From Planctomycetota bacterium (GTDB taxonomy: Bacteria; Planctomycetota; B15-G4; JADJEK01): a stretch of 64,000 nt of DNA. Position 1 is the stretch's first letter; every line of letters begins with the position of its first letter. The stretch spans positions 1,653-65,652 of the forward strand of contig JACQZJ010000028.1 in NCBI GenBank assembly GCA_016213895.1, in the 5' to 3' direction. The position numbers and the translations under genes were made by a program. Shown here piece after piece: positions 48,364 through 63,137 of the stretch. A model generated the notes under the pieces. That model made no database searches. It saw only the letters and a list, made by a program, of their open reading frames with translations, and was not told the DNA's origin.

Positions 48364-49620
48364 TCACAACGTGCCCCAGGTCTCGGACTCGAGGATGAGC
48401 AACGCGTTCTTCTCCCACCAGGAGTTCCAGTAGCTCGCGCCGTCCTCCACGCGCGGCTTTTCGTCCCGCGTCGCGCGCGCCGTGAAGAAGCGCTCGACGC
48501 GGTCGAGCGCGCCGCCCTGCTTCTCGCCGTCTCGGTCCACGGCCACGAGCCGGTCCGCGAGCGCGGCGTCGCTCTCCAGCTCGCGGCGCATTTCCTCGAG
48601 CCGGGAGAGGGCGAGCTGGACCACCTGCGGGTCCCTGTCCTCGAGCAGCACGAGCAGGCGCGGCACGATCTCGTACCGCGGCCCGAAGGTCTCGAGGCTC
48701 ACCCTGCCCTCGGCGCGCGTGACGACGACTGCGGAGGGAACGTCTGCCTCCGGGGCGGGGCTCGCCGCGGCGACAGAGACCGGAGCGGCGGCCTCGGGCA
48801 GGGCCCCGGGCAAAACCGGAGCGGGCGCCGGCTCCTCGGCCGCGGCGGGCGCGGCCGCGACCGCTTCCGCGCGTTCCCTGAGCGCGCCGGCCAGCGACGA
48901 GCCGAAGAGGTCGATGGAGCGGCTCACCTCGCGCGCCGCCTGCCGCACGGCCTCGCTGTCCACCTCGAGGCTCAGGTCGAGGAGCGGGCCGCGGCGCACG
49001 GTCCGCACCCTCTCGACCACCTTCTCCACGACCTCGGGCGGCGGCGGCGCCTCGGGCCGAGCCTCGATGCGCAGCGCGCCCGCGTCGCCGAGGACGAGCG
49101 AGACCCCGCCTCCCTGGCGCACGCTCAGCACGTCCCCGGCTCTCGGCTCGAAGACGTTCGCGGGATCGAGCGGCCGCGCGCGCCCGTCTCTGAGCAGCGT
49201 GCCTTCCCCGGCGACGAGCTGCAGGCCGACCGGCTGCGGGACAAAGCGCACGGCCGGCGGCGGCGCCACCGCCGTCTCGCCCTGCGTCTCCGGGAGGTTC
49301 GCCATGACCAGCACGGCCGCGGCCGCGCCGAGCGCCGCCGCCAGGACGTGCGTGCCCGCGCGCCGCACCCGCGCCGCACCGGCCCAGCGCTGCTCGCCCG
49401 CGGTTTCGCCGACCGCGGCCATGATCGACGCCACGTGCTCGCGCGGCGTCGGACCGACCTCGAGCGCGCGCAGCCTGGCCGTGGCCGCGGCAAAGGACGC
49501 GTACTCCTGGCGGCAGGCCGCGCACTGCTCGAAATGCGCGCGCACGGCCTCTTCGAGCGAGCCCGAGAGCCGCGCGTCCAGGATGTCCGAGAACAGGGGG
49601 AGGATCGCCTCACACTTCAT
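48364..49620 (-). CDS. Anti-sigma factor (zinc-finger ZAS-type N-terminus, single TM helix, large extracytoplasmic domain)
   Basis: N-terminal HFEQCAACRQEY (HxxxCxxC) motif. TM helix VLAAALGAAAAVLVMANL. The start overlaps the sigma-factor stop by 11 nt. Confidence 0.7.
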   Translation of the reverse strand: MKCEAILPLFSDILDARLSGSLEEAVRAHFEQCAACRQEYASFAAATARLRALEVGPTPREHVASIMAAVGETAGEQRWAGAARVRRAGTHVLAAALGAAAAVLVMANLPETQGETAVAPPPAVRFVPQPVGLQLVAGEGTLLRDGRARPLDPANVFEPRAGDVLSVRQGGGVSLVLGDAGALRIEARPEAPPPPEVVEKVVERVRTVRRGPLLDLSLEVDSEAVRQAAREVSRSIDLFGSSLAGALRERAEAVAAAPAAAEEPAPAPVLPGALPEAAAPVSVAAASPAPEADVPSAVVVTRAEGRVSLETFGPRYEIVPRLLVLLEDRDPQVVQLALSRLEEMRRELESDAALADRLVAVDRDGEKQGGALDRVERFFTARATRDEKPRVEDGASYWNSWWEKNALLILESETWGTL

Positions 49621-50206
49621 GGCAGGCACCTGGCGCACTGGCCCGGCCGGCGAGGCCGCCGGCCGCCTTCAGGTATTGGTCGCGGAAGGCGAAACGTCCC
49701 CGGTTCACCCGCGACTTCACGGTCCCCACGGCGCAGTCGAGGCTCCTGGCCGCTTCCTCGTAGGAGAAGTCCAGCACGTCGACCAGGCAGAGCGCGCTGC
49801 GGAAAGGCTCCGGCACGCGCTCGAGCGCCGCCTCGATGGCCGCCGCCTCGTCGCTGCGGCCGCGCGGGTCGAACCATCCGCCGGCCGCGGGCGCCGCACT
49901 GAGGTCGCCGGCGCAGACCTCGCGGCGCCGCTGGCGCTGCCTGAGCGCGTCCCGCACGTGGTTCAGGGCGATGCTGAACAGCCAGGAGCGGAACGAGCCC
50001 TCGGGGCGGTAGCGGTGCATGGCCCGGAACACCTTGACCCAGACTTCCTGGGCCAAGTCGAGGGCGGCGTGGTGGTCGTTCACCTGCTTTCCGATCACGG
50101 CCAGGAGGGACGAACCGAAGCGCGCGACGAGCGCCTCGAAGGCGTCGCGGCGGCCTGCCGCGGCCTCCCTGGCGAGATCCTCGTCTGCTGGGTAGGTCTG
50201 ATGCAT
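49610..50206 (-). CDS. ECF (group IV) RNA polymerase sigma factor
   Basis: Region 2 (AALDLAQEVWVKVFRAMHRYRPEGSFRSWLFSIALNHVRD) and region 4 (VLDFSYEEAARSLDCAVGTVKSRVNRGR). Confidence 0.85.
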   Translation of the reverse strand: MHQTYPADEDLAREAAAGRRDAFEALVARFGSSLLAVIGKQVNDHHAALDLAQEVWVKVFRAMHRYRPEGSFRSWLFSIALNHVRDALRQRQRRREVCAGDLSAAPAAGGWFDPRGRSDEAAAIEAALERVPEPFRSALCLVDVLDFSYEEAARSLDCAVGTVKSRVNRGRFAFRDQYLKAAGGLAGRASAPGACHEV

Positions 50207-50343
50207 CCGGACCGCACGGGAAACGCCGGCGCCTGCGCGGAAGTTCCCGCCCGACGCCGATTCTACGCATTCCCCTGCCGCGCGGCCGGGCCGTGTGCGT
50301 ATCCTGGGCGCCTGCCCCGGACCCGTGCGAAGGGAGGCGCGCG

Positions 50344-51408
50344 ATGATCATGCAGACTGTGCTTCTGGCCGCGATGCTCCTCTTCTCGCCGCAGGAGGGC
50401 GCCCAGGAAGCCGCGCCGGCCTGGCAGGACCTCTTCGACGGCCGCACCCTCGATGGGTGGGCGCGGCGGGGAGGCGCCGCGCTCTATTGCGCCGAGGAGG
50501 GCTGCATCGCCGGCGCGTCGGTCCCGCGCACGGCGAACACCTTCCTCTGCACCGAGCGGCTCTACGGCGACTTCATCCTGGAGTACGAGTTCAAGGTCGA
50601 TCCCGAGCTGAACTCGGGTGTGCAGATCCGCAGCTTCCTCGCGGGCGAGCGCGTCACCGGCTACCAGGTCGAGATCGACATGGACCCGAAGCGCGACCGC
50701 TTCTGGACGGCCGGCCTCTACGAGGAACGGCGGCGCGGCTGGCTCGACGACCTGTCGGACAACGAGGCGGCGCGCGCGGCGCACCGACTGGGCGAGTGGA
50801 ACCAGGTGCGGGTGGAGGCGTTGGGGGACCGCATTCGCACCTGGCTGAACGGCGTGCCCGCTGCCGACCTGGTCGACCCGGTCTTGTTTGAGGGCTTCAT
50901 CGGCCTGCAGGTGCACGGCGTGGGAGAGCGCGCGGACCCGCTCGTGGCGCGCTGGCGCAACCTGCGCATCCAGGACCTCGGCCGCCACAGGTGGCGCCGG
51001 TTCCTCGAAGGCCCGGCGGCCGCGCTCGAGAGCGCCGAGGCGTATCTCGACGCGACGCTGGCCATCGAGTTCCGGCTGGAAGGGTGCGGGCTCGTCGCGT
51101 CCTGGGGCGACATCCAGGTCCGGGTCGGGGCGGACCGGGGGAGCGGCGAAGTGCGGGCCGGCGAGGTGCTTCTTCCCTGGCAGATCGCCGCCGGGCAGGT
51201 TCAAGTCATGCCGGCCGACCCGGCCTCTGACCGCCTGACGCTCAGCCGGCACGGGCGGCGCGTGGCGGCGCACCTGAACGGCGTGCGGCTCGCCGATCTC
51301 GAGACCGCGGAGCCCGCGGCCGGCGGCTCCGCGCTGAAGGCCGCGCTCGACGGGCAAGGCGGCGCGGGCGCCGGCATCCTGCTCCTCGAGGTGTTGGCGC
51401 CGGAGTGA
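50344..51408 (+). CDS. Secreted DUF1080 (3-keto-disaccharide hydrolase-like concanavalin/jelly-roll) domain protein
   Basis: Signal peptide MIMQTVLLAAMLLFSP. The DUF1080 hallmark WQDLFDGRTLDGW...NSGVQIRS is present. Confidence 0.7.
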   Translation: MIMQTVLLAAMLLFSPQEGAQEAAPAWQDLFDGRTLDGWARRGGAALYCAEEGCIAGASVPRTANTFLCTERLYGDFILEYEFKVDPELNSGVQIRSFLAGERVTGYQVEIDMDPKRDRFWTAGLYEERRRGWLDDLSDNEAARAAHRLGEWNQVRVEALGDRIRTWLNGVPAADLVDPVLFEGFIGLQVHGVGERADPLVARWRNLRIQDLGRHRWRRFLEGPAAALESAEAYLDATLAIEFRLEGCGLVASWGDIQVRVGADRGSGEVRAGEVLLPWQIAAGQVQVMPADPASDRLTLSRHGRRVAAHLNGVRLADLETAEPAAGGSALKAALDGQGGAGAGILLLEVLAPE

Positions 51409-51415
51409 GCCCTGC

Positions 51416-52321
51416 ATGAACACGGATGACCGGAGCGCCGCCCTGGAGCGGCGCATCGCCGAGCTGGAAGCGGAGCTGGGGCGGCAGCGCACCTGGCGGC
51501 CGCCGGGCCACTTCTACTCGCCCATTCCCGATCCGGCAGAGGTGGAGAAGCGCCAGGAGCGGATCTTCGACTGCACGCCGCGCCACCTGCCCGGCATCGA
51601 CCTGAACGCCGAGCGCCAGCTCGGCCTGCTCGATGAGTTCAAGGAGTACTACCGGGAGATGTCCTTTCCCGTAGAGCGGCAGGACGGGAGGAGGTACTGG
51701 TTCGAAAACATCCAGTATTCCTACTCCGACGCCGTCTTCCTCTACTGCATGATCCGCCACGCGCGCCCGCGGAGCATCATCGAGGTGGGCTCGGGCCACT
51801 CGTCCTGCCTCATGCTCGACACGAGCGACCTCTTCTTCGGCGGCGCCATCGAGTGCACCTTCATCGACCCGTTTCCCGAGGCGCTGCGCGCCCTGCTTCT
51901 GCCGGGAGACGAGGCGCGCGTGCGCATCGTGCCGGAGCCGGTGCAAGACGTGCCGCTCGAGCTGTTCTCCGCGCTCGAGGAGAACGACATCCTCTTCATC
52001 GACTCGACGCACGTGGTCAAGACCGGCGGCGACGTCAACCACCTCTTCTTCGAGGTGCTGCCGCGCCTGGCGCGCGGCGTCTACGTCCATGTGCATGACG
52101 TGCACTTTCCCTTCGAGTACCCGAAGGAGTGGGTGCTGGAGGGCCGCGCCTGGAACGAGACCTACCTGCTGCGCGCCTTCCTCATGTACAACCGCGCCTT
52201 CGAGGTGCAGTGCATGAACACCGCTCTCGAGAGGTTCAGGACCGAGTGGTTCCGCGAGCACATGCCCCTCTGCCTGAAGAACCCGGGAGGCAGCATCTGG
52301 CTCAGGAAGGCGGGCGAGTGA
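51416..52321 (+). CDS. Class I SAM-dependent methyltransferase (Methyltransf_24 / CmcI-like)
   Basis: Sequence IIEVGSGHSS...ILFIDSTH. It starts 8 nt after the DUF1080 gene stop. Confidence 0.75.
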   Translation: MNTDDRSAALERRIAELEAELGRQRTWRPPGHFYSPIPDPAEVEKRQERIFDCTPRHLPGIDLNAERQLGLLDEFKEYYREMSFPVERQDGRRYWFENIQYSYSDAVFLYCMIRHARPRSIIEVGSGHSSCLMLDTSDLFFGGAIECTFIDPFPEALRALLLPGDEARVRIVPEPVQDVPLELFSALEENDILFIDSTHVVKTGGDVNHLFFEVLPRLARGVYVHVHDVHFPFEYPKEWVLEGRAWNETYLLRAFLMYNRAFEVQCMNTALERFRTEWFREHMPLCLKNPGGSIWLRKAGE

Positions 52322-53334: not shown

Positions 53335-54042
53335 TCAGAGAGCCCGGGCGGCGGGAACCTCGCGCATGCTGATCAGGCCGCGCTTCCGCCAGCCGAGTCC
53401 GAGCAGCCAGGTTCTCGCTCGCGCCAGCGGGGGGTCTCCGTCCCTATCGCTCAGGCCGCGGGGCAGCCGGCCCGCGGTCTCCTTCCAGCCGCCGAACCAG
53501 AATCCGCTGGCGAAGGGATCGAGCAGCGCCTTCCCGAGCCGCGCCGCGTGCCGCCGCGCGTTGTTGAGGACGTAGCAGAGAGCGTTCCTCACCTCGCGCG
53601 GCGTCCTCAGGATGCGGGCGTGGTAGCGGTCGGCGAACACCCGCCCGTGGCGCTCCCAGAGCCGGTTCAGCGCCTTGGCCAGCCGAATCAAGAGTCCCTG
53701 CATGCCCTTCGCCAGCGCCTCCCGGTCCTTTCCCTCGCAGATCATGTGCAGGTGGCTCGTCTGCACCGAGTAGTGCGCCAGCCGAAACCCGAACCGGTCG
53801 CACCCAGCCGCGAACGCGCCCTTCAGCACACGGTAGGTCTTCGCGTCGCGGAGCCGCGGCAGGCCCTGCTCGAGCCGCACGGTCACGTGCACGGGGAAGC
53901 GCGCCGCGAGCTTCTCGCGCGTCCTGTGCGACAGCCCGGCCCGCTCCCCCTTGGGCTTGCGTCCGGCGCCGGGACGCCGGCCGCCACGCCTGGCGAACGC
54001 GAACCGTTGCTGGCTCGGGATCGGTTGTCGCTTCCTGCCCAT
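53335..54042 (-). mobile_element. IS200-like Y1 transposase of the REP-associated tyrosine transposase (RAYT) type
   Basis: HLHMICE matches the HuH motif. The catalytic Tyr region (VFADRYHARIL) and an Arg/Gly-rich N-terminus are present. Confidence 0.75.
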
Positions 54043-54362: not shown

Positions 54363-57300
54363 TCACTTCACCCTGAGCAACGGCGTGAAGTAGCGGTAGT
54401 AGACCTCGAGCGCCAGCACGCACATGGCCGTGGAGTAGCCGCGGCTCTGGTCCGTGTCGCACGCGCGCTCCGAGTAGGGGCAGATCGGCCGCCACGAGCC
54501 GTCTCGCTGCTGCGCCGGCAAGAGAGTCGCCTTCATGGCCTCGTTCCAGCGCCGCCAGTCCTCGCCGCCGGCGCGGAACAGGGCGAGCGAGCCGTAGTAC
54601 CAGAAGTAGAGGTTGCCCGAGGCGTCCTCGACGAACTGCTCCTCGCCGCGGCAGCGATACTCGGCGGGCGAGCGCTCGAGCACGAACGCGCGCGGCCGCG
54701 CGAACTCGCGCGAGGCGATGTCGTCCCCGAGCAGCGAGAGGGCGAACAGCGCCGCGGGCGTGGACGCGGGCAGCGTGCGGTACGACGAGTCGAGCCGCTC
54801 CGGGTCGTGGCAGTAGCGGTAGAAGCCGCCGCGCGCGTCGTAGGCGTTCTTCAGGAACGCGGCCGCGCGCTCGAACACGACATCCTCCACGGCGAGGCCG
54901 CCGAGGCGCGCCGACTCGAGCGCCATGATCTGCCAGGCGCTGATCGACACGCGCGACCAGCGGTCGAAGTGCTGGCCCTCGGGGTTGTAGTAGCCCCAGC
55001 CTCCGCCCAGGCGCGCGTCGCGGCTCTGGCTCTGGTTCTTGAGGATCTCGGCCACCGCACGTTCCAGGGGCGCGCGCAGCGCCTCGTCCCGCGTCATGGC
55101 GTAGCACTCGGCGAGCGCGTAGGTCGCGATGCCGTGGCTGTAGGACGAGGTCCAGCCGAAGTGGCCGGACTCTTCGTCCTGCACCTCGCGCAGGAAACGG
55201 AGCGCCTTCCCTACCACGCCGCTGTGCTCGGTCGCGGACGCTTGCGTGTGGCCGGCGCCGAGGAAGGCGAGCAGGCAGAGCCCGCTCTTCCCTACGCAGA
55301 CGAAGCCGTACTTGTCCTCGTAGTCGTCCTGCGAGCCCCAGAAGCCGTCCTTGTTCTGCAGGCGCGCCAGGTAGGCGAGGCCGTCCGCGACCGCCTTCTC
55401 GGTCTCGCGGCTCCCACCATGCAGCTCGATCGCCTTCTGCTTCTCGCTGCCGAAGCGGTTGCGATACGGCGTGTGCTCGAGGCGGCGCGGCAGCTCCGCG
55501 TCCGGCTCGCCGGGCGCGGCGCGTGCGATCTCGAGCGCGGGCCCGGGCCGCGGCGAAGGCGGCGCGAGCGGCTGGTCGAAGGCGAGGCGCGCCGGCCCGG
55601 AGGAGCTTTCGGACCGGCGCGGCAGGGCGTCGAGAGCGCGCGGCGCGGGCAACGCGAGGCCCTCTCTCGCGCCCGCGGCCGGCTCGTTCTGAGTTGCCGC
55701 ATCCTGTTCCCAGCCCTCCGGACGGTCGTCGAGCGCCACGTCCAGGAGGTCCCCCGCGGCACGCGCCGGCTCCGCGCCCCCCCGCGCGCGCGGCGGAGCG
55801 CTCTCCGCTAGGGCACCGGCGCGCCTCGGGCCTATCCCCTGCGGCGCGGGCGCGCCCGCGAGCGCGTCTCCCGCGGGAAGCGGCGCCGTCTCGCCGCCGA
55901 AGCGGTCGGGCCCCGGCCCTTTCGGCGAGCGAGCACCCGGCGTGGCGGGCGGCAGGCTCGGCAGCGGCTCGGAAACGCGCGATCCCTCTCCCGGCGCCTG
56001 CGCGAGCGGCGCGAAGGACTCGGCGTCCTCGAGAGCCGGCAGGGAACGTGCGTGCTGCAAGGGCAAGCTTGGCGCGAGAGCAGCCCTTTCTGCCGGCGCT
56101 TCAGGACCCTGGCCGCCATCCTGCGCGCGAACCACGAGCGGCCGGTCGGGCCGGGCCTCCTGCTCGCCGGATGCCGCGCCCGCCCGCACGCCGGGGAGCG
56201 GCTCTCGCGGAGCTGCGGGCGCGCCCCGCTCTGGCGCGCCGCCGATGTCTCTTACGGCGAGGAGGAGCGCGGGCGCATCTGCCGCCATGCGCTCCTGCGG
56301 CGCGCCGTTGTCCGCGAGCGCCACGTCGGGCAGGCCGTCCGCCGCGGAGCGGTCGGGCGCCTCCCCCGGCCGGCGGCCGGGCGCGGGCGGAGCCTCGGGT
56401 CGCGCGCGCGAGGCCGCCGCGAGGGGCGCTGCTTCGAGGCCTTGCACCGGCGGCTGTGCTGCCGCGCGCTCGGGCCCGGCGAGCTCCGCGGCCGCGCGCT
56501 CTGCCCGGAGCACGCCGCCCAGCTCACGTTCCGCCGCGCCGTCCGCGCGCGTCCTGGCGAGGGCCACGTGGAAGAGCGCGTCCCGTCCCCCCGGCGCGTC
56601 GAAGGCGCCGCCTTTGACCGTGACCTGCTGGAAGTACCAGAGCATCAAGAGGTGCAGCACGAGCGCGAGCAGGTAGCAGCGGTAGAGGACGTCGAGCGAC
56701 TCCCAGCGCTTCGCCAGCCAGGCGAGCAGGGCGGCGAGCAAGAGCGCGGCCAGGATCGTCAGGTCGAGCCAGCCGATCGGTCTCCCCGGCATGCGGAACA
56801 GCTCGAGCGAGCGCGCCCGCAGCAGGTCGAAGTCGCCCGCGGCGTTCTCGGCCGAGAACAACAGGGTGAAGCCGTCCGCGGCCGGCAGCGGCCCGCGCTC
56901 GGAGGCAGGCGTGTTCACGCCTGCCACGGGCTTGGCCGGCAGGAAGACGCCGCGGTCGCGCACGCTGCGGTACAGATCGAAGCCGCCGCAGCCGTCCTCG
57001 CGGTCAGAGGCGAAGAGCAGGGCCGCGCCGTCGGCGGAGAGCGCGGGCTCGCGATCGTCCTGCAACGAGTTGACCGCCGCGAGCGGCGCGACGGCGTATT
57101 CCGGGCTCGCGCCGTCCTGCGGCGCCGGTCCGGGAGTCGCCAGGTAGAGGTCGAAGTCGCGCTGGCCGCGGTTCGAGGCGAAGGCGAGCACGCCGCTGCC
57201 CGCCAGGCCGGCCGGATCGGTCTCGTCGGCCGCGCTGTTCAGACCGCCGCCGGCCGGCTCTGGCAGGTCGAACACGCCGCTTCGCACGCGGCTCACGTAC

Positions 57301-57740
57301 AGGTCGAAGCCGCCCGCGCCGCCCGGCCGGTTCGACGCGAAGTAGAGCGCGTCGCCGGCAAAGGCCGGCGCAATCTCGTCGCATGGCGAGTTGAGGAGCG
57401 AGAGCGGCTCGGGCGGGCCGGGCTCGCCGCCGCTCATCTCGCAGACGTAGAGGTCCTGGTTGAGGCCGGGCTTGCCGGCGCAGAAGACCAGGCGGAGCCC
57501 GTCCGGCGAGAGCGCGGGCCGCGTCTCCCAGTCCTCGCCGTTCACGGCCGGAGAGAGCGGCACGGGGTCGTCCCAGACCGCGTAGCGCATTTCCTCGCCC
57601 GCCGTGCTGGCGAAGTGGCGTTCGCCGTCGGTCCAGGTCGCCTCGTCGCCGAGGTGCGAGCGGAAGCGCAGGTAGGCCAGGAAGAAGCCCGCGGCGAGGA
57701 GCGCCAGGGCGATGACGGCGGTCTTGCCCGGGTGCCTCAT
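54363..57740 (-). CDS. Multidomain envelope protein: N-terminal TM helix, TolB-like PD40 beta-propeller repeats, two internal TM helices, Pro/Ala-rich extended region, C-terminal prenyltransferase / squalene-cyclase-like alpha-alpha toroid
   Basis: PD40 repeats (LSPDGLRLVF, ALYFASNRPGGAGGFDLY, SADGAALLFASDR). Internal helices (LTILAALLLAALLAWL, LLALVLHLLMLWYF). Five toroid repeats of the QxxDGxW type (QNKDGFWG, DEESGHFGWTS, RLGGGWGYY, ARGGFYRY, QQRDGSWR). Confidence 0.75.
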   Translation of the reverse strand: MRHPGKTAVIALALLAAGFFLAYLRFRSHLGDEATWTDGERHFASTAGEEMRYAVWDDPVPLSPAVNGEDWETRPALSPDGLRLVFCAGKPGLNQDLYVCEMSGGEPGPPEPLSLLNSPCDEIAPAFAGDALYFASNRPGGAGGFDLYVSRVRSGVFDLPEPAGGGLNSAADETDPAGLAGSGVLAFASNRGQRDFDLYLATPGPAPQDGASPEYAVAPLAAVNSLQDDREPALSADGAALLFASDREDGCGGFDLYRSVRDRGVFLPAKPVAGVNTPASERGPLPAADGFTLLFSAENAAGDFDLLRARSLELFRMPGRPIGWLDLTILAALLLAALLAWLAKRWESLDVLYRCYLLALVLHLLMLWYFQQVTVKGGAFDAPGGRDALFHVALARTRADGAAERELGGVLRAERAAAELAGPERAAAQPPVQGLEAAPLAAASRARPEAPPAPGRRPGEAPDRSAADGLPDVALADNGAPQERMAADAPALLLAVRDIGGAPERGAPAAPREPLPGVRAGAASGEQEARPDRPLVVRAQDGGQGPEAPAERAALAPSLPLQHARSLPALEDAESFAPLAQAPGEGSRVSEPLPSLPPATPGARSPKGPGPDRFGGETAPLPAGDALAGAPAPQGIGPRRAGALAESAPPRARGGAEPARAAGDLLDVALDDRPEGWEQDAATQNEPAAGAREGLALPAPRALDALPRRSESSSGPARLAFDQPLAPPSPRPGPALEIARAAPGEPDAELPRRLEHTPYRNRFGSEKQKAIELHGGSRETEKAVADGLAYLARLQNKDGFWGSQDDYEDKYGFVCVGKSGLCLLAFLGAGHTQASATEHSGVVGKALRFLREVQDEESGHFGWTSSYSHGIATYALAECYAMTRDEALRAPLERAVAEILKNQSQSRDARLGGGWGYYNPEGQHFDRWSRVSISAWQIMALESARLGGLAVEDVVFERAAAFLKNAYDARGGFYRYCHDPERLDSSYRTLPASTPAALFALSLLGDDIASREFARPRAFVLERSPAEYRCRGEEQFVEDASGNLYFWYYGSLALFRAGGEDWRRWNEAMKATLLPAQQRDGSWRPICPYSERACDTDQSRGYSTAMCVLALEVYYRYFTPLLRVK

Positions 57741-57746
57741 CGGCCG

Positions 57747-58166
57747 CTAACCGCCGCTCGCGTCGAGCGTGCCCACGGCGAGGTTCGTCAAACCGGCGGC
57801 GCCGCAGGCGTCCATCACTTGCACGATCCTCTCGTGGTGCACCAGCCGGTCGCCGCGGATGGTGACCGGTAGCTCGGCGCTCTTCCGCGCCGCGCGCTCC
57901 AGGGCGGCGGCCAGGCCGGCCTGGTCGGTCTCGCGCCCGGAGACGATCAGCGTGCCGTCCTGCAGCACGTTGATGATCAGCTCGTCCGGCGCCTCGCCCG
58001 GCGCCTCGCCGGAGACGGCCTGCGGCAGCTCGATGCCGATCTCCCGCTCCGGGTCGAGGAAGGAGGTCGCGCACATGAAGAAGATGAGCAGCAGGAAGAC
58101 CATGTCGATGAGCGGCGTGAGGTTGATCTGGAAGTGCTCGTTGTCTTCCGTGTCACGGATGTGCAT
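57747..58166 (-). CDS. ExbD/TolR-family biopolymer transport protein
   Basis: Start re-assigned to MHIRDT, which has a GGAGG RBS. The ExbD signature INLTPLIDMVFLLLIFFM is present. Confidence 0.85.
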   Translation of the reverse strand: MHIRDTEDNEHFQINLTPLIDMVFLLLIFFMCATSFLDPEREIGIELPQAVSGEAPGEAPDELIINVLQDGTLIVSGRETDQAGLAAALERAARKSAELPVTIRGDRLVHHERIVQVMDACGAAGLTNLAVGTLDASGG

Positions 58167-58818
58167 GGGTCGCCTCCGCAACCTGCAGGTACATCTCCTC
58201 CGTGTCGCGCACGAAGCGGTCGATCTTGCCCTTGAAGTAGAAGTAGGCCGCCTGCGTGGGGATGGCGATGGCCAGGCCCGCGGCCGTGGTGATGAGCGCC
58301 TGGGAGATGCCGGTGGCGAGCAGCGCCGGCTTGCCCAGGCCGTCCCGGAGCGCGATGTTCGAGAAGGCGATGATCATGCCCCAGACCGTGCCGAGCAGCC
58401 CGAGGAGCGGCGAGATCATGGCCACGACCACGAGCGGCTTGAGGTTGGCCGAGAGCGCGCGCACCTCGCGCGAGCCCGCGTCCTCGACCGCCTTTTCGAC
58501 CTCGAGCACGGGCGCGCCAATGCGCCTCAGGCCGGCGCCGAGGATGCGCGCCAGCGGCAGCGCGCGCTCCGCGCAGAGCGCCGCGCCGCCCACCGCGCCG
58601 CCGCTCTTGACCGCCGCGAGCAGCTCCTGGCCGAAGCGCCGGCCGCCGAGGCGGCCGCCGCGCAGGCGGATGGCGCGCTCCACGATGTAGGCCAGCGCGA
58701 TGACCGAGCACAGGCCGAGCGGCCACATGAGCGGCCCCCCGTTCACCACCAGGTCGTACAGGGAGAGCAGGTAGGGCGCATCTCCTCGCTGCGCCGCCAA
58801 GAGCGTCATCGCTGGCAT
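58153..58818 (-). CDS. ExbB/TolQ/MotA-family proton channel
   Basis: Three TM helices and the conserved C-terminal TolQ block (MISPLLGLLGTVWGMIIAF...ALITTAAGLAIAIP). It overlaps the start of the ExbD/TolR gene. Confidence 0.85.
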   Translation of the reverse strand: MPAMTLLAAQRGDAPYLLSLYDLVVNGGPLMWPLGLCSVIALAYIVERAIRLRGGRLGGRRFGQELLAAVKSGGAVGGAALCAERALPLARILGAGLRRIGAPVLEVEKAVEDAGSREVRALSANLKPLVVVAMISPLLGLLGTVWGMIIAFSNIALRDGLGKPALLATGISQALITTAAGLAIAIPTQAAYFYFKGKIDRFVRDTEEMYLQVAEATHAHP

Positions 58819-58831
58819 GGACTCCTCCACC

Positions 58832-60067
58832 TCAGAACGTCTTCAGCTCGTCCAGGCGCGCGCGCGCCTGCGCGGCGAACGGCGACTGGGGGTGTTTCTG
58901 CACGATCTCCTGGTACTGGCCGCGTGCTCGGTCCGCGTCGCCGAGTTTCTCCAGGCACTGGCCGGCGAGAAAGAGCGCCTCGGCCACCTCGGCCTCGCCG
59001 CCGAAGAGCACGGCCACCTTCAGGAACTCGGCGAGCGCCTTCTCGGTGTCGCCGGCCAGGCCGTGGAGGCGCCCGAGCTCGATGCGCGCCTGCGCCGCCA
59101 GCACGCCGCGATCCCGGGCGATCACGCGCTCGAGCGCCTGCCGCGCGCCGCGCGCGTTGCCGCGCGCGGAGAGCGCGCGGCCGCGCCACAGCTCGGCCTC
59201 GGCGCCGTTCTCGAACTCGGGGAAGCGCCGCGCCAGCTCGGTGAGGGCCTCCTCGCCCTCCTGCCAGCGCGCGTCGCGGCAGTGGGCGAGGCCCAGGCGG
59301 AAGAGCGTCTTGGCCATTGCCTCGTGGCCGGGAGACGCGCGCCGCAGGCGCTCGAAGCAGGCGATCGCCTCGTCCAGGCGGTCGAGGCGGTAGAGCATCT
59401 CCCCTTGCAGGTAGAGGCTCTCCCCGAACAGGGGGCTTGTCGGGTGCTCTTCGGCCAGACGAGCGAACGAGCCCGCGGCGCCGGCAGCGTCGCCCTCGCG
59501 CATGCGCGCGAATCCGCCCTTGTAGAGGGCGCGGTCCGCGGCCGGGCCGCCCGGCGTCTTTGCCGCGATCTCGTAGAGAGGCACGGCGCGCGCGTCCTCT
59601 GCGCGCTCGTAGAGCGCCTCGGCCACGAAGAAGGCGGCCTCCGCGAGACGCGGATCCTCGGGCGCGCAGGCCAGCGCCTGGCTGAGGTGCGCCTCGGCCG
59701 CGTCGGGGTCGCCCTGCTCCAGGGAGATGTAGGCGCGCTCGATGCGCGCGGCCGCGCAAAGCTCGGCGCCCGCGCCGTCGAGGGACGCGAGCAGGGCGTC
59801 CGCCTCGGCGGCGCGGCCGCCCTTGGCGAGCGCCTGCGCCGCGGCGCGTGCCGCGTCCAGCAGCTTCTGCCCGTTCGGGGACGCCTCGCGCAGGCGCGCG
59901 CAGCTTTCCGCCGCGCCGTCCAGGTCCCCTGCCCTCAGCTCGGCAAAGACGAGCAGCTCGAGCGCCGCCGCGCGCAGGTCCGCCGCCAGGCCCTCCTGGC
60001 TGGCGAGCTGGCGCAGCTCCTTGGCCGCGGCCGCGTGCTCCCCGCGTTCATGGAGCGCCCCGGCCAT
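58832..60067 (-). CDS. TPR-repeat protein (start uncertain, between 60067 and 60148)
   Basis: Repeated A/L/G/Y-rich 34-residue units. It ends 2 nt before the ExbB/TolQ gene. Confidence 0.6.
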   Translation of the reverse strand: MAGALHERGEHAAAAKELRQLASQEGLAADLRAAALELLVFAELRAGDLDGAAESCARLREASPNGQKLLDAARAAAQALAKGGRAAEADALLASLDGAGAELCAAARIERAYISLEQGDPDAAEAHLSQALACAPEDPRLAEAAFFVAEALYERAEDARAVPLYEIAAKTPGGPAADRALYKGGFARMREGDAAGAAGSFARLAEEHPTSPLFGESLYLQGEMLYRLDRLDEAIACFERLRRASPGHEAMAKTLFRLGLAHCRDARWQEGEEALTELARRFPEFENGAEAELWRGRALSARGNARGARQALERVIARDRGVLAAQARIELGRLHGLAGDTEKALAEFLKVAVLFGGEAEVAEALFLAGQCLEKLGDADRARGQYQEIVQKHPQSPFAAQARARLDELKTF

Positions 60068-61667
60068 CCCGTCGCGCGCGCCCGCGGCCAAGGCGCAGAA
60101 GGGCGATGAGCACGTCCGGGCGATGAGCGCCCTCGGGATGCTCGGCAAGGTGCCGCTCGAAAGAACGAAGTGCCGCGCCCTGCTGGCCCGTGCCTTCGCA
60201 GGCGCGGCCCAGCATGTAGAGGGCCTCCTCCTGCTCCTTCGCTCCTTGGCCGTGGTCCACGACCCAGCGGAAGGCCTCGGCCGCCGCGGCGTGCTCGCCG
60301 TTCAGGAAGCGGCACCAGCCGGCGCGCTCGGTCGCGCTCAGCTTCACGGCCTCGTCGCCGGAGCGCGCCGCCTCCAGGAACTGAGCCGCGGCGCCCGCGT
60401 AGTCCTCTTCCGCCAGGAGGCACTCGCCGAGGATGGCGCGCGCGGCCGCGGCGTAGGAGCTTTCTTTTCGCTCCGCGAGCAGGCGCTCGGCCAGCTGGCG
60501 CGCGCCGGCCGGCCGCCCGGCGTTCAAGCTGGCCGCGGCCGCGGAGTAGAGGGCGTGGTCGCTTTCTGACGCGGCGTAGGCCTCGGCCGCCTCGGCGCTC
60601 CGCCCCAGGTCGAAGAGCAGGTCGCCGCGCGCGACCTGGCAGCGCTCGCAGAGCTCCGCCTCGGGCTTCAGGGCCAGGGCGCGCTCGCAGTCGGCGAGCG
60701 CGCCGGCCGGGTCGCCGGCCGCGGCGCGCGCGCGCGACCGCCAGTAGCAGAGCTCCGCGCCTTCCTGCGCCGTGGCCGAGGAGAGCACGGCTGCGGCCGC
60801 CTCGGCCTGGCCCGCCTTCAACAGGTGGATGCCGCACTGCAGGGTCGCCTCGGCGGCGTAGCGGCTCTCCGGCACGCGCTCCACCACCTTGCCGAACATC
60901 TCGGCCGCGGCGGCGTGCTCGTCGAGCTCGCCGAGCGCGAAGCCCGCGCCGCGCAGGGCGGAGTCGAGGAAGGGGCCGTCCTCGACCTGGGTGTAGGCGG
61001 CGAGCGCCTCTTGCGGGCGCCCGGCCTCGAGAAGGCACTCGCCGGCGAGGAAGCGCAGCTCGCCATCGAGGGGGTCGCCGCGGTGGAGGCGCGTGAACTC
61101 CTCGATGGCGGCGAGCGCCGCGTCGTATTCGCCGCAGCGGAAGCGACACCAGGCGATCCCGTAGCGCGCCTCGCGCGCGTAACGGCCCTCGGCGTCGGTG
61201 GCGAGCGCCTGCTCGTAGAGCGGCCGCGCGGCCGCGAAGTCGCCCTTGCGGAAGGCGGCCTCGCCCAGGAGGAAGGTCGCCGGCAGGCGCAGGTAGGGCC
61301 GGTCGAGCTCGAGCACGCGGGCGAGCGCGGCCTCTGCCTCGGCGAAGCGGCCGGCCCGCAGCTCGCACTCGCCCAGGCGGAAGGCAGCTTCGGCCGCGAA
61401 CTCGAAGTCCGCGAGGTCCAGGAGGCGGCGGAAGTGGGGCGCGGCCTCGGCGCCGCGCTCCAGCTCGAAGAGGGCCGTGGCCAGGCGGTAGCGCGCGTGC
61501 GCCTCGCGCGCGTGGCCGCGGTGTTCCTTCAGGAAGGCTTCCGCCTCCTTCACGGCCATGTCGTACATCCCCTTCTCGCAGAGGCCGGCGATGAACTGGT
61601 ACTGGTCGTCGGCTTCGTCTGGGGCGGGCAAGAGGAGCGCGAGGAAGAGGACGAGGATCGAGGACAT
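60048..61667 (-). CDS. Secreted TPR-repeat protein
   Basis: AGGAGGGGAG RBS. Signal peptide MSSILVLFLALLLPAP. About 12 TPR units. The frame overlaps the next TPR ORF by 20-100 nt. Confidence 0.65.
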   Translation of the reverse strand: MSSILVLFLALLLPAPDEADDQYQFIAGLCEKGMYDMAVKEAEAFLKEHRGHAREAHARYRLATALFELERGAEAAPHFRRLLDLADFEFAAEAAFRLGECELRAGRFAEAEAALARVLELDRPYLRLPATFLLGEAAFRKGDFAAARPLYEQALATDAEGRYAREARYGIAWCRFRCGEYDAALAAIEEFTRLHRGDPLDGELRFLAGECLLEAGRPQEALAAYTQVEDGPFLDSALRGAGFALGELDEHAAAAEMFGKVVERVPESRYAAEATLQCGIHLLKAGQAEAAAAVLSSATAQEGAELCYWRSRARAAAGDPAGALADCERALALKPEAELCERCQVARGDLLFDLGRSAEAAEAYAASESDHALYSAAAASLNAGRPAGARQLAERLLAERKESSYAAAARAILGECLLAEEDYAGAAAQFLEAARSGDEAVKLSATERAGWCRFLNGEHAAAAEAFRWVVDHGQGAKEQEEALYMLGRACEGTGQQGAALRSFERHLAEHPEGAHRPDVLIALLRLGRGRARRDGRGAP

Positions 61668-61949
61668 GCGGCTCCCCTCCTGGGCACGAGAGAGGTTCGA
61701 TGCCGCGCCGGTCCGGCCCGGGAGGGAACCGCGGCCGCCCCGGCGCGGAACTCCTATACGTTTAGGAGTTGGCGCGTGTGAGGGCATCAGGATTTTTCCG
61801 TGACTCGCCGCGCCGCGGCGGCAAGGCGGGTGCGGATTGACACTTCCGGAGCAGAGCCTCTATGGTGCGCCCTTCCCGCGCGTCTTTCCGCCGGCCGGCA
61901 CGATGCTTCGGGGCGGCGGTCTCCCGCGCGCGATCGGAGGAAGCCCGTC

Positions 61950-63137
61950 ATGGACCTCGGCAAGATCCAGGCCGCTCTCAGGGACGCCCGGCTCGACGGG
62001 TGGCTCTTCTACGACTTCCACAACCGGGACGTGCTCTCCTACCGCGTCCTGGGGATGGACCCCGCCAAGTTCACCTCGCGGCGCTGGTTCTATCTCATCC
62101 CGGCCGCGGGCGAGCCGCGCAAGCTCGCGCACCGCGTGGAGCCGACCAAGCTCGACTTGCTTCCCGGCAAGAAGGAGATGTACCTCTCCTGGCGCGAGCT
62201 GCACCGGAAGATCGGCGAGCTCCTGCGCGGCATGCGGCGCGTGGCCATGCAGTACTCGCCGCTCAGCAACATCCCGTACGTCTCCATGGTGGACGGCGGG
62301 ATCCTCGAGCTGGTGCGCCAGACGGGGGTCGAGGTCGTGTCCTCGGCCGACCTGGTGCAGACCTTCGAGGCGGTCCTGGACCAGGAGGCGTACCAGAGCC
62401 ACGTCGAGGCGGCGGCGCGCGTGGACCGCATCCGCGACGAGGCGTTCGCCGAGGTCGGCCGCCGCATCCACGCGGGCAAGCCGCCCACGGAGTATGAGAT
62501 CCAGCAGTTCATCGTGCGCCGCTTCGGCGAGGAGGGCCTCACTTGCAAGGGGGAGAACCCGATCGTCGGCGTCAACGACCACCCGGCCAACCCGCACTTC
62601 GAGCCCACGCCCGAGAACAGCTACACGCTCAAGGCCGGCGACACGTTGCTCATCGACCTGTGGGCCAAGCTCGACCGTCCCAAGGCGGTGTTCTACGACA
62701 TCACCTGGTGCGGCTTCATCGGCCGCGGGCAGGTCCCGCCGCGCTATGCCGAGATCTTCGCGACGGTGCGCGACGCGCGCCGCGCGGCCGTGGACTTCGT
62801 GCGGCGGCGCTTCGCCGCCGCGGAGGCGGTGGCTGGCTTCGAGGTCGACGACGCCTGCCGCAAGGTGGTGGCCGACGCCGGCTACGGCGCCGAGTTCGTG
62901 CACCGCACGGGACACTCGATCGGCGAGGAAGTGCACGGCAACGGCGTGAACATCGACAACCTCGAGACCAGGGACGAGCGCCTGCTCGTGCCCGGGATCT
63001 GCTTCTCCGTCGAGCCCGGCATCTACCTCGAGGGGGAGATGGCGGCCCGCTCCGAGATCAACGTGTTCATCACGCCCGCGGGGGAGGTCACGGTCGCCGG
63101 CCGGCAGCAGGAAGAGCTGGTCGTCGTGGACGCCTGA
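61950..63137 (+). CDS. M24-family metallopeptidase (Xaa-Pro aminopeptidase / creatinase-like)
   Basis: GGAGG RBS. N-terminal creatinase-like domain followed by a pita-bread domain with metal ligands (DLWAKLD...HRTGHSIGEEVHG...FSVEPGIY). Confidence 0.85.
   Translation: MDLGKIQAALRDARLDGWLFYDFHNRDVLSYRVLGMDPAKFTSRRWFYLIPAAGEPRKLAHRVEPTKLDLLPGKKEMYLSWRELHRKIGELLRGMRRVAMQYSPLSNIPYVSMVDGGILELVRQTGVEVVSSADLVQTFEAVLDQEAYQSHVEAAARVDRIRDEAFAEVGRRIHAGKPPTEYEIQQFIVRRFGEEGLTCKGENPIVGVNDHPANPHFEPTPENSYTLKAGDTLLIDLWAKLDRPKAVFYDITWCGFIGRGQVPPRYAEIFATVRDARRAAVDFVRRRFAAAEAVAGFEVDDACRKVVADAGYGAEFVHRTGHSIGEEVHGNGVNIDNLETRDERLLVPGICFSVEPGIYLEGEMAARSEINVFITPAGEVTVAGRQQEELVVVDA

Follow-up and report, generated by a model that had tools for sequence, protein, structure and literature searches.

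TonB and TolA each engage their targets with an alpha/beta domain, by beta-strand addition, and to our knowledge TonB_C and TolA-III are the only well-studied heads that transmit force to the outer envelope from motors of the ExbB/TolQ type. Both proteins bind their motors through the SHLS motif (S-x3-H-x6-L-x3-S), whose His is essential (PMC12204202), and TonB also carries a D-box, a hydrophobic-polar-hydrophobic-polar-hydrophobic-hydrophobic-polar strand that is captured by the ExbD dimer (PMC10907165). In Planctomycetes–Verrucomicrobia–Chlamydiae (PVC) bacteria, the SHLS motif lies in a transmembrane (TM) helix of the vWA transducers, which also have a motor box, a ~100-residue linker and a C-terminal vWA domain and are encoded downstream of genes for a tetratricopeptide repeat (TPR) protein, tolQ and tolR (PMC12204202; Williams-Jones et al. 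2025, Mol Biol Evol). The Tol-Pal set of Planctomycetes is reported to be largely reduced (PMC8871954). We analyzed a 64,000-nucleotide stretch of a Planctomycetota bacterium (assembly GCA_016213895.1, contig JACQZJ010000028.1; hereafter the window), in which five minus-strand open reading frames (ORFs) stand in series: two TPR ORFs, an ExbB/TolQ gene, an ExbD/TolR gene and a gene for a 1125-residue fusion protein that ends in an alpha-helical toroid. On balance, the sequence evidence favors the view that this cassette specifies an envelope-spanning machine of the Tol/Ton type, powered by the proton-motive force, with the 1125-residue protein as its force transducer.

We read the cassette as a toroid-headed variant of Tol/Ton-type transducer machines, and its closest published logic is that of the vWA transducers. 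It shares with them a His-containing helix of the SHLS type, a motor-box-like strand pattern, a disordered Pro-rich linker, a globular C-terminus other than TonB_C, a position downstream of TPR and tolQ/tolR-like genes, and its occurrence in Planctomycetes. It differs from them by its toroid head, by a single tolR/exbD gene where vWA loci have a heterologous pair, by a linker of ~390 residues (340–850 in relatives) instead of ~100, and by an added anchor and TolB-like propeller. With TonB and TolA it has in common the motor families PF01618 and PF02472, an S-x3-H helix, a D-box-like strand pattern, a Pro-rich region and the three-part layout, whereas the fusion lacks TonB_C and TolA-III, has its putative docking helix as the third rather than the first TM helix, and has a much longer linker. 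A preliminary description of the locus, made from its letters and ORFs, had called it a configuration not described before. This stands for the head, as no published toroid-headed TonB-like transducer or cassette was found in open-access papers and bioRxiv, but the class itself has a precedent in the vWA transducers of 2025 (PMC12204202).

Motor genes and a single-chain fusion protein

The 225-residue protein matches Pfam MotA_ExbB (PF01618; E 6e-29, 100.9 bits against a cutoff of 22.9) and the 144-residue protein matches Pfam ExbD (PF02472; E 4e-30, 104.9 bits against 25.4). Their ORFs overlap, in agreement with the preliminary description, and the exbD stop is separated by 6 nucleotides from the start of the fusion ORF. 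The conserved helices GTVWG and ALITTAAGL..IP of the ExbB-like protein match TolQ/ExbB, and its channel helices LGLLGTVWGM and ALITTAAGLAIAIP align with GLFGTVWGI and ALIATAIGLFAAIP of TolQ. In the ExbD-like protein, the TM aspartate lies within INLTPLIDMVFLLLIFFM; the segment INLTPLIDMVF aligns with INVTPFIDVML of ExbD, with the proton-binding Asp present, and the alignment with E. coli and Serratia ExbD includes INVTPFIDVMLVLLIIFM. Both hallmarks of 5:2 motor proteins, namely the Pfam domains and a TM Asp together with Thr-containing channel helices, are thus present.

Both proteins stay under the NCBIfam equivalog cutoffs of Tol as well as Ton. The best NCBIfam match of the ExbB-like protein is TolQ (TIGR02796, 85.9 bits against an equivalog cutoff of 221), and its nearest solved chains are also TolQ (E 1e-11). 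TolR (TIGR02801) reaches 67 bits against a cutoff of 127 on the ExbD-like protein, which is closer to ExbD structures (E 1e-10) than to TolR structures (E 3e-4). The motor sequences therefore leave Tol and Ton undivided, the ExbB-like protein leaning to TolQ and the ExbD-like protein to ExbD. Compared with Tol-Pal, the cassette shows neither TolQ/TolR at equivalog level nor the TolB architecture, and no Pal-like OmpA gene was found in the cassette of the window or of two relatives (L001 and L003).

The 1125-residue protein is encoded by one ORF that joins a TolB-like propeller, TM helices, a Pro-rich spacer and the toroid, and this fusion is real. The identical protein in NCBI (P0001), from a metagenome-assembled genome (MAG), is named 'PD40 domain-containing protein [Planctomycetes bacterium]'. 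A word-indexed protein search returned 156 relatives, 120 of them listed and most 1045–1616 residues long; more than 100 are full-length homologs of this size. When the three parts of the fusion were compared separately by BLAST with the 120 listed homologs, propeller, TM hairpin and C-terminal toroid occurred in one chain in ~105 of them, the toroid being the most conserved part (55–72% identity among these homologs). An assembly chimera or a missed stop codon, which the preliminary description had named as a possible refutation, is therefore ruled out by the recurring one-chain architecture; at the level of loci, 51 of 55 have PD40 upstream of the toroid (see below). Its other caveat, that orthologs might routinely be called TolA or TolB, does not apply among the listed homologs, whose names are 'hypothetical', 'PD40', 'WD40-like' and, once, 'prenyltransferase/squalene oxidase repeat-containing', and never TolA or TolB.

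To survey the locus more broadly, one genome per GTDB species was scanned with a toroid profile, which gave at least 573 relatives. The best 80, which we examined, belong almost all to Planctomycetota MAGs, including Phycisphaerales. The window proteins were compared by tblastn with these loci, of which 55, from distinct Planctomycetota genomes, had enough upstream sequence. ExbB and ExbD each lie upstream on the same strand and in the same order in 53 of the 55, so the synteny anticipated for exbB, exbD and the fusion is conserved; the PD40 region is present in 51, the C-terminal TPR half in 52 and the N-terminal TPR half in 49. Down to a toroid identity of 35%, the cassette keeps its order, and its flanking genes vary from locus to locus. 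In the loci of homologs P0039 (a 698-kb MAG contig) and P0095 (the Poly30 complete genome), a TPR gene (1010 or 1063 residues) is followed by ExbB, ExbD and the fusion; the flanks of these two loci are unrelated. The cassette is thus carried by the complete genome of a cultured strain, Poly30 (CP036434.1), with P0095 as a close homolog, and it is also present in the complete genome OZ245838.1. No downstream partner gene is conserved, the best cluster covering 14 of 57 loci. Because the flanks change and nothing downstream is kept, the cassette, judged from these loci, is a self-contained four-gene unit.

This pattern bears on the idea that the genes are mere neighbors and that the 1125-residue protein is a membrane-anchored periplasmic binder or scaffold that makes no use of the motor. 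Toroid proteins that stand away from exbBD (described below) would suit such a protein, and motor coupling is deduced from synteny and motifs. Nevertheless, ExbB and ExbD keep their place and strand in 53 of 55 loci amid changing flanks and deep divergence, the stop and start codons overlap or nearly abut, and an invariant His occupies the TonB/TolA position, so that we consider mere neighborhood improbable.

The His belongs to the third TM helix of the fusion. In an alignment of the hairpin region of 117 homologs, H363 is invariant (117 of 117). Four residues ahead of this His, position 359 holds Ser in 80% of the homologs and Ala in 20%, the window having Ala, while position 370, seven residues past the His, is either Phe or Leu. 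The resulting S/A-x3-H-x6-F/L corresponds to the S-x3-H-x6-L part of SHLS, as in a helix of the TonB/TolA type. A segment 17–23 residues past this helix fits the published TonB D-box pattern, its V392 being conserved in at least 90%; by its position and pattern, such a strand would be a candidate to bind ExbD. In the model, residues past 376 are disordered. The linker (Pro 10–22% and Ala 20–34% per 50 residues) varies widely in length among the homologs, between two conserved flanks, and has the character of an extended Pro-rich domain II, as the TonB/TolA-like spacer of the preliminary description implied. The 355 C-terminal residues beyond it are of ordinary composition. Taken together, the S/A-x3-H helix and the D-box-like motif make the analogy with TonB/TolA, at the level of sequence, much stronger than that description could see.

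The N-terminal part was examined in an AlphaFold model of residues 1–400 built with 20 aligned homologs (pLDDT, the predicted local distance difference test, 85.4). Hydropathy places helices at residues 8–26, 325–343 and 351–373, which agrees with the N-terminal anchor and two further TM helices proposed earlier; the model contains five propeller blades rather than the four PD40 repeats counted then. The best NCBIfam matches of the PD40 region are the PorE and CHU_0125 propellers, with which, as with TolB, it shares PD40 blades. A Foldseek search of the PDB put TolB chains at the top (E 5e-13, 19–20% identity), whereas the TolB model TIGR02800 reaches 15.7 bits against a cutoff of 343. Unlike TolB, which is soluble and six-bladed, the modeled propeller has five blades flanked by TM helices, lacks the N-terminal alpha/beta domain and would be anchored in the inner membrane at both of its ends. 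Unlike the PorE/CHU_0125 type, it carries no OmpA-like domain and is not an outer-membrane lipoprotein. 'TolB-like' is a fair term for the modeled blades. With the N-terminus in the cytoplasm, propeller, linker and toroid would all be periplasmic.

Relatives that lack the propeller show which parts are constant. At L083 (9089–11041, plus strand), a TPR gene (1071 residues), ExbB and ExbD accompany a 650-residue toroid protein without propeller, in which the linker is accompanied only by a hairpin of two helices that contains SIFAH. L072 (9290–11020, plus strand; 576 residues), L073 and L075 encode toroid proteins with ~200–240 residues ahead of the toroid, consisting of a single TM helix with SLALH, SVLVH or SVSIH and a short acidic/Ala-rich linker. 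At L072, the locus inspected, no exbB or exbD lies nearby, as with orphan tonB genes. Divergent propeller-bearing members have SLLIH or SVLLH, and SxxxH also occurs in L053, L066 and L011. As SxxxH and toroid are kept in propeller-less and orphan relatives, the constant core, by sequence comparison, is the SxxxH helix with linker and toroid, and the propeller is an add-on.

The toroid head

We modeled the toroid with AlphaFold2 from an alignment of 26 family members. The model (pLDDT 93.4; predicted template modeling score, pTM, 0.93) consists mainly of twelve helices, which alternate between an outer and an inner layer, and the alpha-alpha barrel foreseen for this region was thus obtained. 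The six-hairpin toroid carries the strict QxxDGxW motif at residues 795 and 1077 alone, the remaining repeats being degenerate; the five such repeats counted earlier are not borne out. Pfam SQHop_cyclase_C (PF13243) scores 28.9 bits on the fusion, just above its gathering cutoff of 26.1, and Prenyltrans (PF00432) stays under its cutoff. The single toroid sequence found nothing significant among PDB sequences, and the family profile alone reached squalene-hopene cyclase (SHC), at E 1e-11 via repeat units. The profile also matched TEP1 and A2M thioester domains weakly (E 5e-4 to 0.06), as well as PL10 pectate lyase. No TonB_C or TolA-III match was found in the fusion with Pfam or NCBIfam and no vWA fold is present at its C-terminus; in agreement with the preliminary description, the usual head is replaced by an all-helical toroid.

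Judged from the model, the toroid belongs to the terpene-cyclase superfamily and is nearest to class II terpene cyclases. It shares with these enzymes (SHC, oxidosqualene cyclase (OSC), the single-domain MstE and the myxobacterial SHC-like 8paj) the (alpha/alpha)6 fold and SQHop_cyclase_C. It differs in lacking DxDD and in sitting on a predicted periplasmic tether; it has two strict QW motifs, and unrelated sugar-acting toroids match it almost as well. Compared with the beta subunits of protein prenyltransferases, it has neither a Prenyltrans match above cutoff nor the Asp/Cys/His zinc ligands.

The alignment with SHC was inspected around the catalytic acid. The SHC segment GGFAFQFDNVYYPDVDDTAVVVWAL aligns with the family pattern GGWGYY..PD....D.WPR.SVTAWQVMAL, in a low-scoring segment whose flanking pattern agrees. 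In this segment D374-V-D-D-T-A of SHC stands opposite P-R-x-S-V-T-A of the family, which places a near-invariant Ser at the general acid Asp376. The DxDD motif of SHC/OSC is not present in the toroid and the invariant columns hold no acidic cluster. Among the 26 toroids no Cys is invariant or near-invariant and no D/C/H triad was found, which makes a prenyltransferase zinc site or a thioester unlikely; the CGEQ thioester motif of A2M/complement is also not present. Since both DxDD and an invariant Cys are missing, we read the toroid from its sequence as probably a binding head, or an enzyme of other chemistry, rather than a cyclase.

The preliminary description had suggested a polyisoprenoid-handling machine. 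In its enzymatic form, the toroid would be an active terpenoid cyclase or prenyltransferase-like enzyme that the motor positions to remodel polyisoprenoid lipids such as hopanoids or undecaprenyl carriers. Besides the PF13243 score and the SHC profile match, four conserved aromatics on the inner helices (Y97, W166, W277 and Y279, domain numbering) are what one would expect of such an enzyme. The exchange of DVDD for P-R-x-S-V-T, with Ser in place of the general acid (in that low-scoring segment), the missing Cys and D/C/H triad and the subthreshold PF00432 score point the other way. In addition, the enzymes known to have such a fold are either cytoplasmic or monotopic and do not sit on a 390-residue periplasmic tether. 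An active cyclase or prenyltransferase is therefore very unlikely to us.

At the C-terminus of the fusion, residues 1111–1125 (nt 54366–54410) form a tail, LEVYYRYFTPLL(K/R)V, that is near-invariant even at 35% identity and is modeled at pLDDT 65–72, below the barrel. A part in interaction or sorting is conceivable for this tail.

Cluster representatives matched by the toroid profile number 20,720 at E ≤ 0.001 and 7,159 at E ≤ 1e-30; in all of the best 150, the toroid lies in proteins of 306–2279 residues and is nearly always C-terminal. The top match, P0121 (1100 residues), aligns with the profile in three stretches and has Pfam hits to TED_complement, SQHop_cyclase_C and Prenyltrans, its best toroid match starts at residue 21, and its architecture is unlike that of the fusion.

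A family of this size would suit an energizer with many paralogs, and the fusion might be the planctomycetal counterpart of TonB, its toroid engaging outer-membrane transporters or crateriform uptake structures and energizing the import of large substrates into the enlarged periplasm. The SxxxH, D-box and linker logic is common to TonB, the ExbD-like protein is closer to ExbD than to TolR structures, and the orphan toroid proteins resemble the orphan tonB paralogs of other bacteria. On the other hand, no TonB-dependent receptor or outer-membrane gene is conserved beside the cassette, the accessories (propeller, TPR protein and TolQ-leaning ExbB) point to Tol, and the toroid model offers no beta sheet that could bind a Ton box. 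We regard a dedicated import function as rather unlikely.

The TPR gene and the surroundings of the cassette

The two ORFs upstream of exbB match many TPR families in Pfam and had been described as two TPR proteins. The N-terminal half aligns with residues 21–531 of a single 1010-residue TPR protein of L001 in frame -3, while tblastn places residues 708–1009 and 641–1059 of the L001 and L003 TPR proteins on the C-terminal half in frame -1. In the relatives L001, L003 and L083 the TPR gene is a single one of 1010–1071 residues. By this alignment the two ORFs of the window are the N- and C-terminal halves of one gene, with a frame change near 60103–60105 that is either an assembly frameshift error or a true split or pseudogenization. 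Translation probably starts at the ATG at 61667, which would yield the signal peptide MSSILVLFLALLLP, devoid of a lipobox Cys. The resemblance to CpoB/YbgF noted earlier is supported by TIGR02795 (tol_pal_ybgF), which scores 114 and 117 bits against a cutoff of 90.1 (117 for the N-terminal half) on repeated units of the ~1000-residue protein; the TPR component of Tol-Pal is thus represented by its repeat type, whereas PRK10803, the full-length CpoB model, stays far under its cutoff.

TPR proteins also occur in the Agl-Glt gliding machinery of Myxococcus, in which TolQR-like motors drive TonB-like proteins together with them. The cassette might by this token be an engine for surface motility or shape change. 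Motility was likewise raised in the paper on the vWA transducers (PMC12204202), P0095 comes from Poly30, of the shapeshifting Saltatorellus group, and the TPR ORFs match GltC weakly. That match reaches 17 bits against a cutoff of 450, no other glt-like genes are adjacent, and the cassette occurs in many Planctomycetota and Phycisphaerales MAGs, not in shapeshifters alone. A motility engine is for these reasons highly doubtful. The features of the cassette are collected in Table 1.

Table 1. Features of the toroid-headed cassette, with positions in the window
Feature	Residues of the fusion protein	Position	Strand	Basis or remark
TPR protein, N-terminal half		60048–61787	-	579-residue ORF
TPR protein, C-terminal half		58832–60148	-	438-residue ORF
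ExbB/TolQ-type proton-channel subunit (pentamer-forming stator protein)		58153–58830	-	225 residues, PF01618
ExbD/TolR-type subunit		57747–58181	-	144 residues, PF02472
Fusion protein, putative force transducer		54363–57740 (including stop codon)	-	1125 residues, single ORF
TM1, predicted signal-anchor helix	4–29	57654–57731	-	hydropathy 8–26; modeled helix, pLDDT 81–95
Five-bladed PD40 beta-propeller	55–315	56796–57578	-	PD40 E 4e-21; model pLDDT >90, four-strand blades
TM2, first hairpin helix	324–345	56706–56771	-	hydropathy, alignment and model; ends in conserved AWLAKRW
TM3, putative TonB/TolA-type docking helix	347–372	56625–56702	-	S/A-x3-H (A359...H363, nt 56652–56666)
D-box/motor-box-like strand pattern	390–396	56553–56573	-	FHVALAR; family consensus F-R-V-R-L-A-S
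Pro/Ala/Gly-rich linker ('domain II'), including the D-box-like segment	380–770	55431–56603	-	composition
(alpha/alpha)6 toroid, terpene-cyclase/prenyltransferase superfamily	771–1125	54366–55430	-	tail LEVYYRYFTPLL

The G+C content is ~70–80% across the cassette region of the window. Directly downstream of the fusion gene, and outside the conserved cassette, lies a 235-residue ORF (53335–54042, minus strand) with an H-L-H motif; it has no Pfam match at E ≤ 0.001 and weakly resembles REP-associated tyrosine transposases (NF047646, E 2e-9, 37 bits where the cutoff is 80). Further away, 48364–50206 (minus strand) and 50293–52321 (plus strand) encode an extracytoplasmic function (ECF) sigma factor (Sigma70_r2/r4_2) beside a zf-HC2 anti-sigma factor, a 3-keto-disaccharide hydrolase family protein and a Methyltransf_24 protein, and an M24 peptidase gene (61800–63137, plus strand) diverges from the cassette. 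None of these sigma/anti-sigma, hydrolase, Methyltransf_24 and M24 peptidase neighbors is kept beside the cassette in relatives. Searches of the window for toroid, ExbB and ExbD found no further paralogs of toroid or motor. At L063 (11896–14520, plus strand) and about 14 related loci, a gene of ~870 residues follows the fusion; by eye it is of the thioredoxin/DUF255 type with a toroid-like C-terminus, and it probably reflects local synteny of a sub-clade.

Proposed mechanism and meaning

In the machine that we favor, TM3 would dock outside the ExbB pentamer via His363, as the SHLS helix of TonB/TolA does, and the ExbD dimer would capture the D-box-like strand. Proton flow would then make the motor pull on a flexible or polyproline-like linker that spans the periplasm, and the toroid at its far end would grip a partner, perhaps a protein, glycan or lipid, in the outer membrane or cell wall. 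TM1 and TM2 would keep the TolB-like propeller at the inner membrane, and both the propeller and the CpoB-like TPR protein (~1000 residues) would be accessory periplasmic modules. An enlarged periplasm has been described for planctomycetes, and a fully extended 390-residue linker, which could by far outspan a normal periplasm, may suit it.

Several points weigh against this machine. The coupling of fusion and motor is deduced from synteny and short motifs, and the motif in TM3 is just S/A-x3-H-x6-F/L, with the final Ser of SHLS not conserved in the family and Ala at the first position in the window. Residues 390–396 are disordered in the monomer model (pLDDT <50), which gives no evidence of a strand, though this is expected of one that forms on binding. 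The toroid offers no obvious equivalent of target binding by strand addition, no gene for a target recurs next to the cassette, and a propeller fixed to the inner membrane cannot act as a soluble TolB.

As to the purpose of such a transducer, the TolQ-leaning ExbB, the TolB-like propeller, the CpoB-like TPR protein and the reduction reported for the planctomycetal Tol-Pal set (PMC8871954) tilt the comparison towards the envelope: by analogy, envelope maintenance or tethering seems somewhat more likely than nutrient import, and this is the weakest step of the argument. A bolder version, which we put forward only tentatively, is that toroid-headed SxxxH proteins are the main carriers of proton-motive energy to the outer envelope in Planctomycetota and a phylum-wide third transducer class beside TonB_C/TolA-III and vWA, that the barrel, derived from terpene cyclases, grips a non-protein ligand such as a hopanoid, another polyisoprenoid lipid or a glycan, and that the propeller-bearing, exbBD-linked form in the window replaces the reduced Tol-Pal when the outer membrane constricts in these bacteria, which divide without FtsZ.

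If the transducer reading is true, the toroid would be a fourth head after TonB_C, TolA-III and vWA, the last of which was proposed in 2025, and the docking module of SxxxH helix, D-box and linker would be a portable cassette that can be fused to different effectors. The toroid family is large, and its members bear public names that say just 'PD40 domain-containing' or 'hypothetical'. Planctomycetes have a wide periplasm and an unusual division, and the fusion would be a testable candidate for how they energize outer-membrane processes and hold the outer membrane to the wall.

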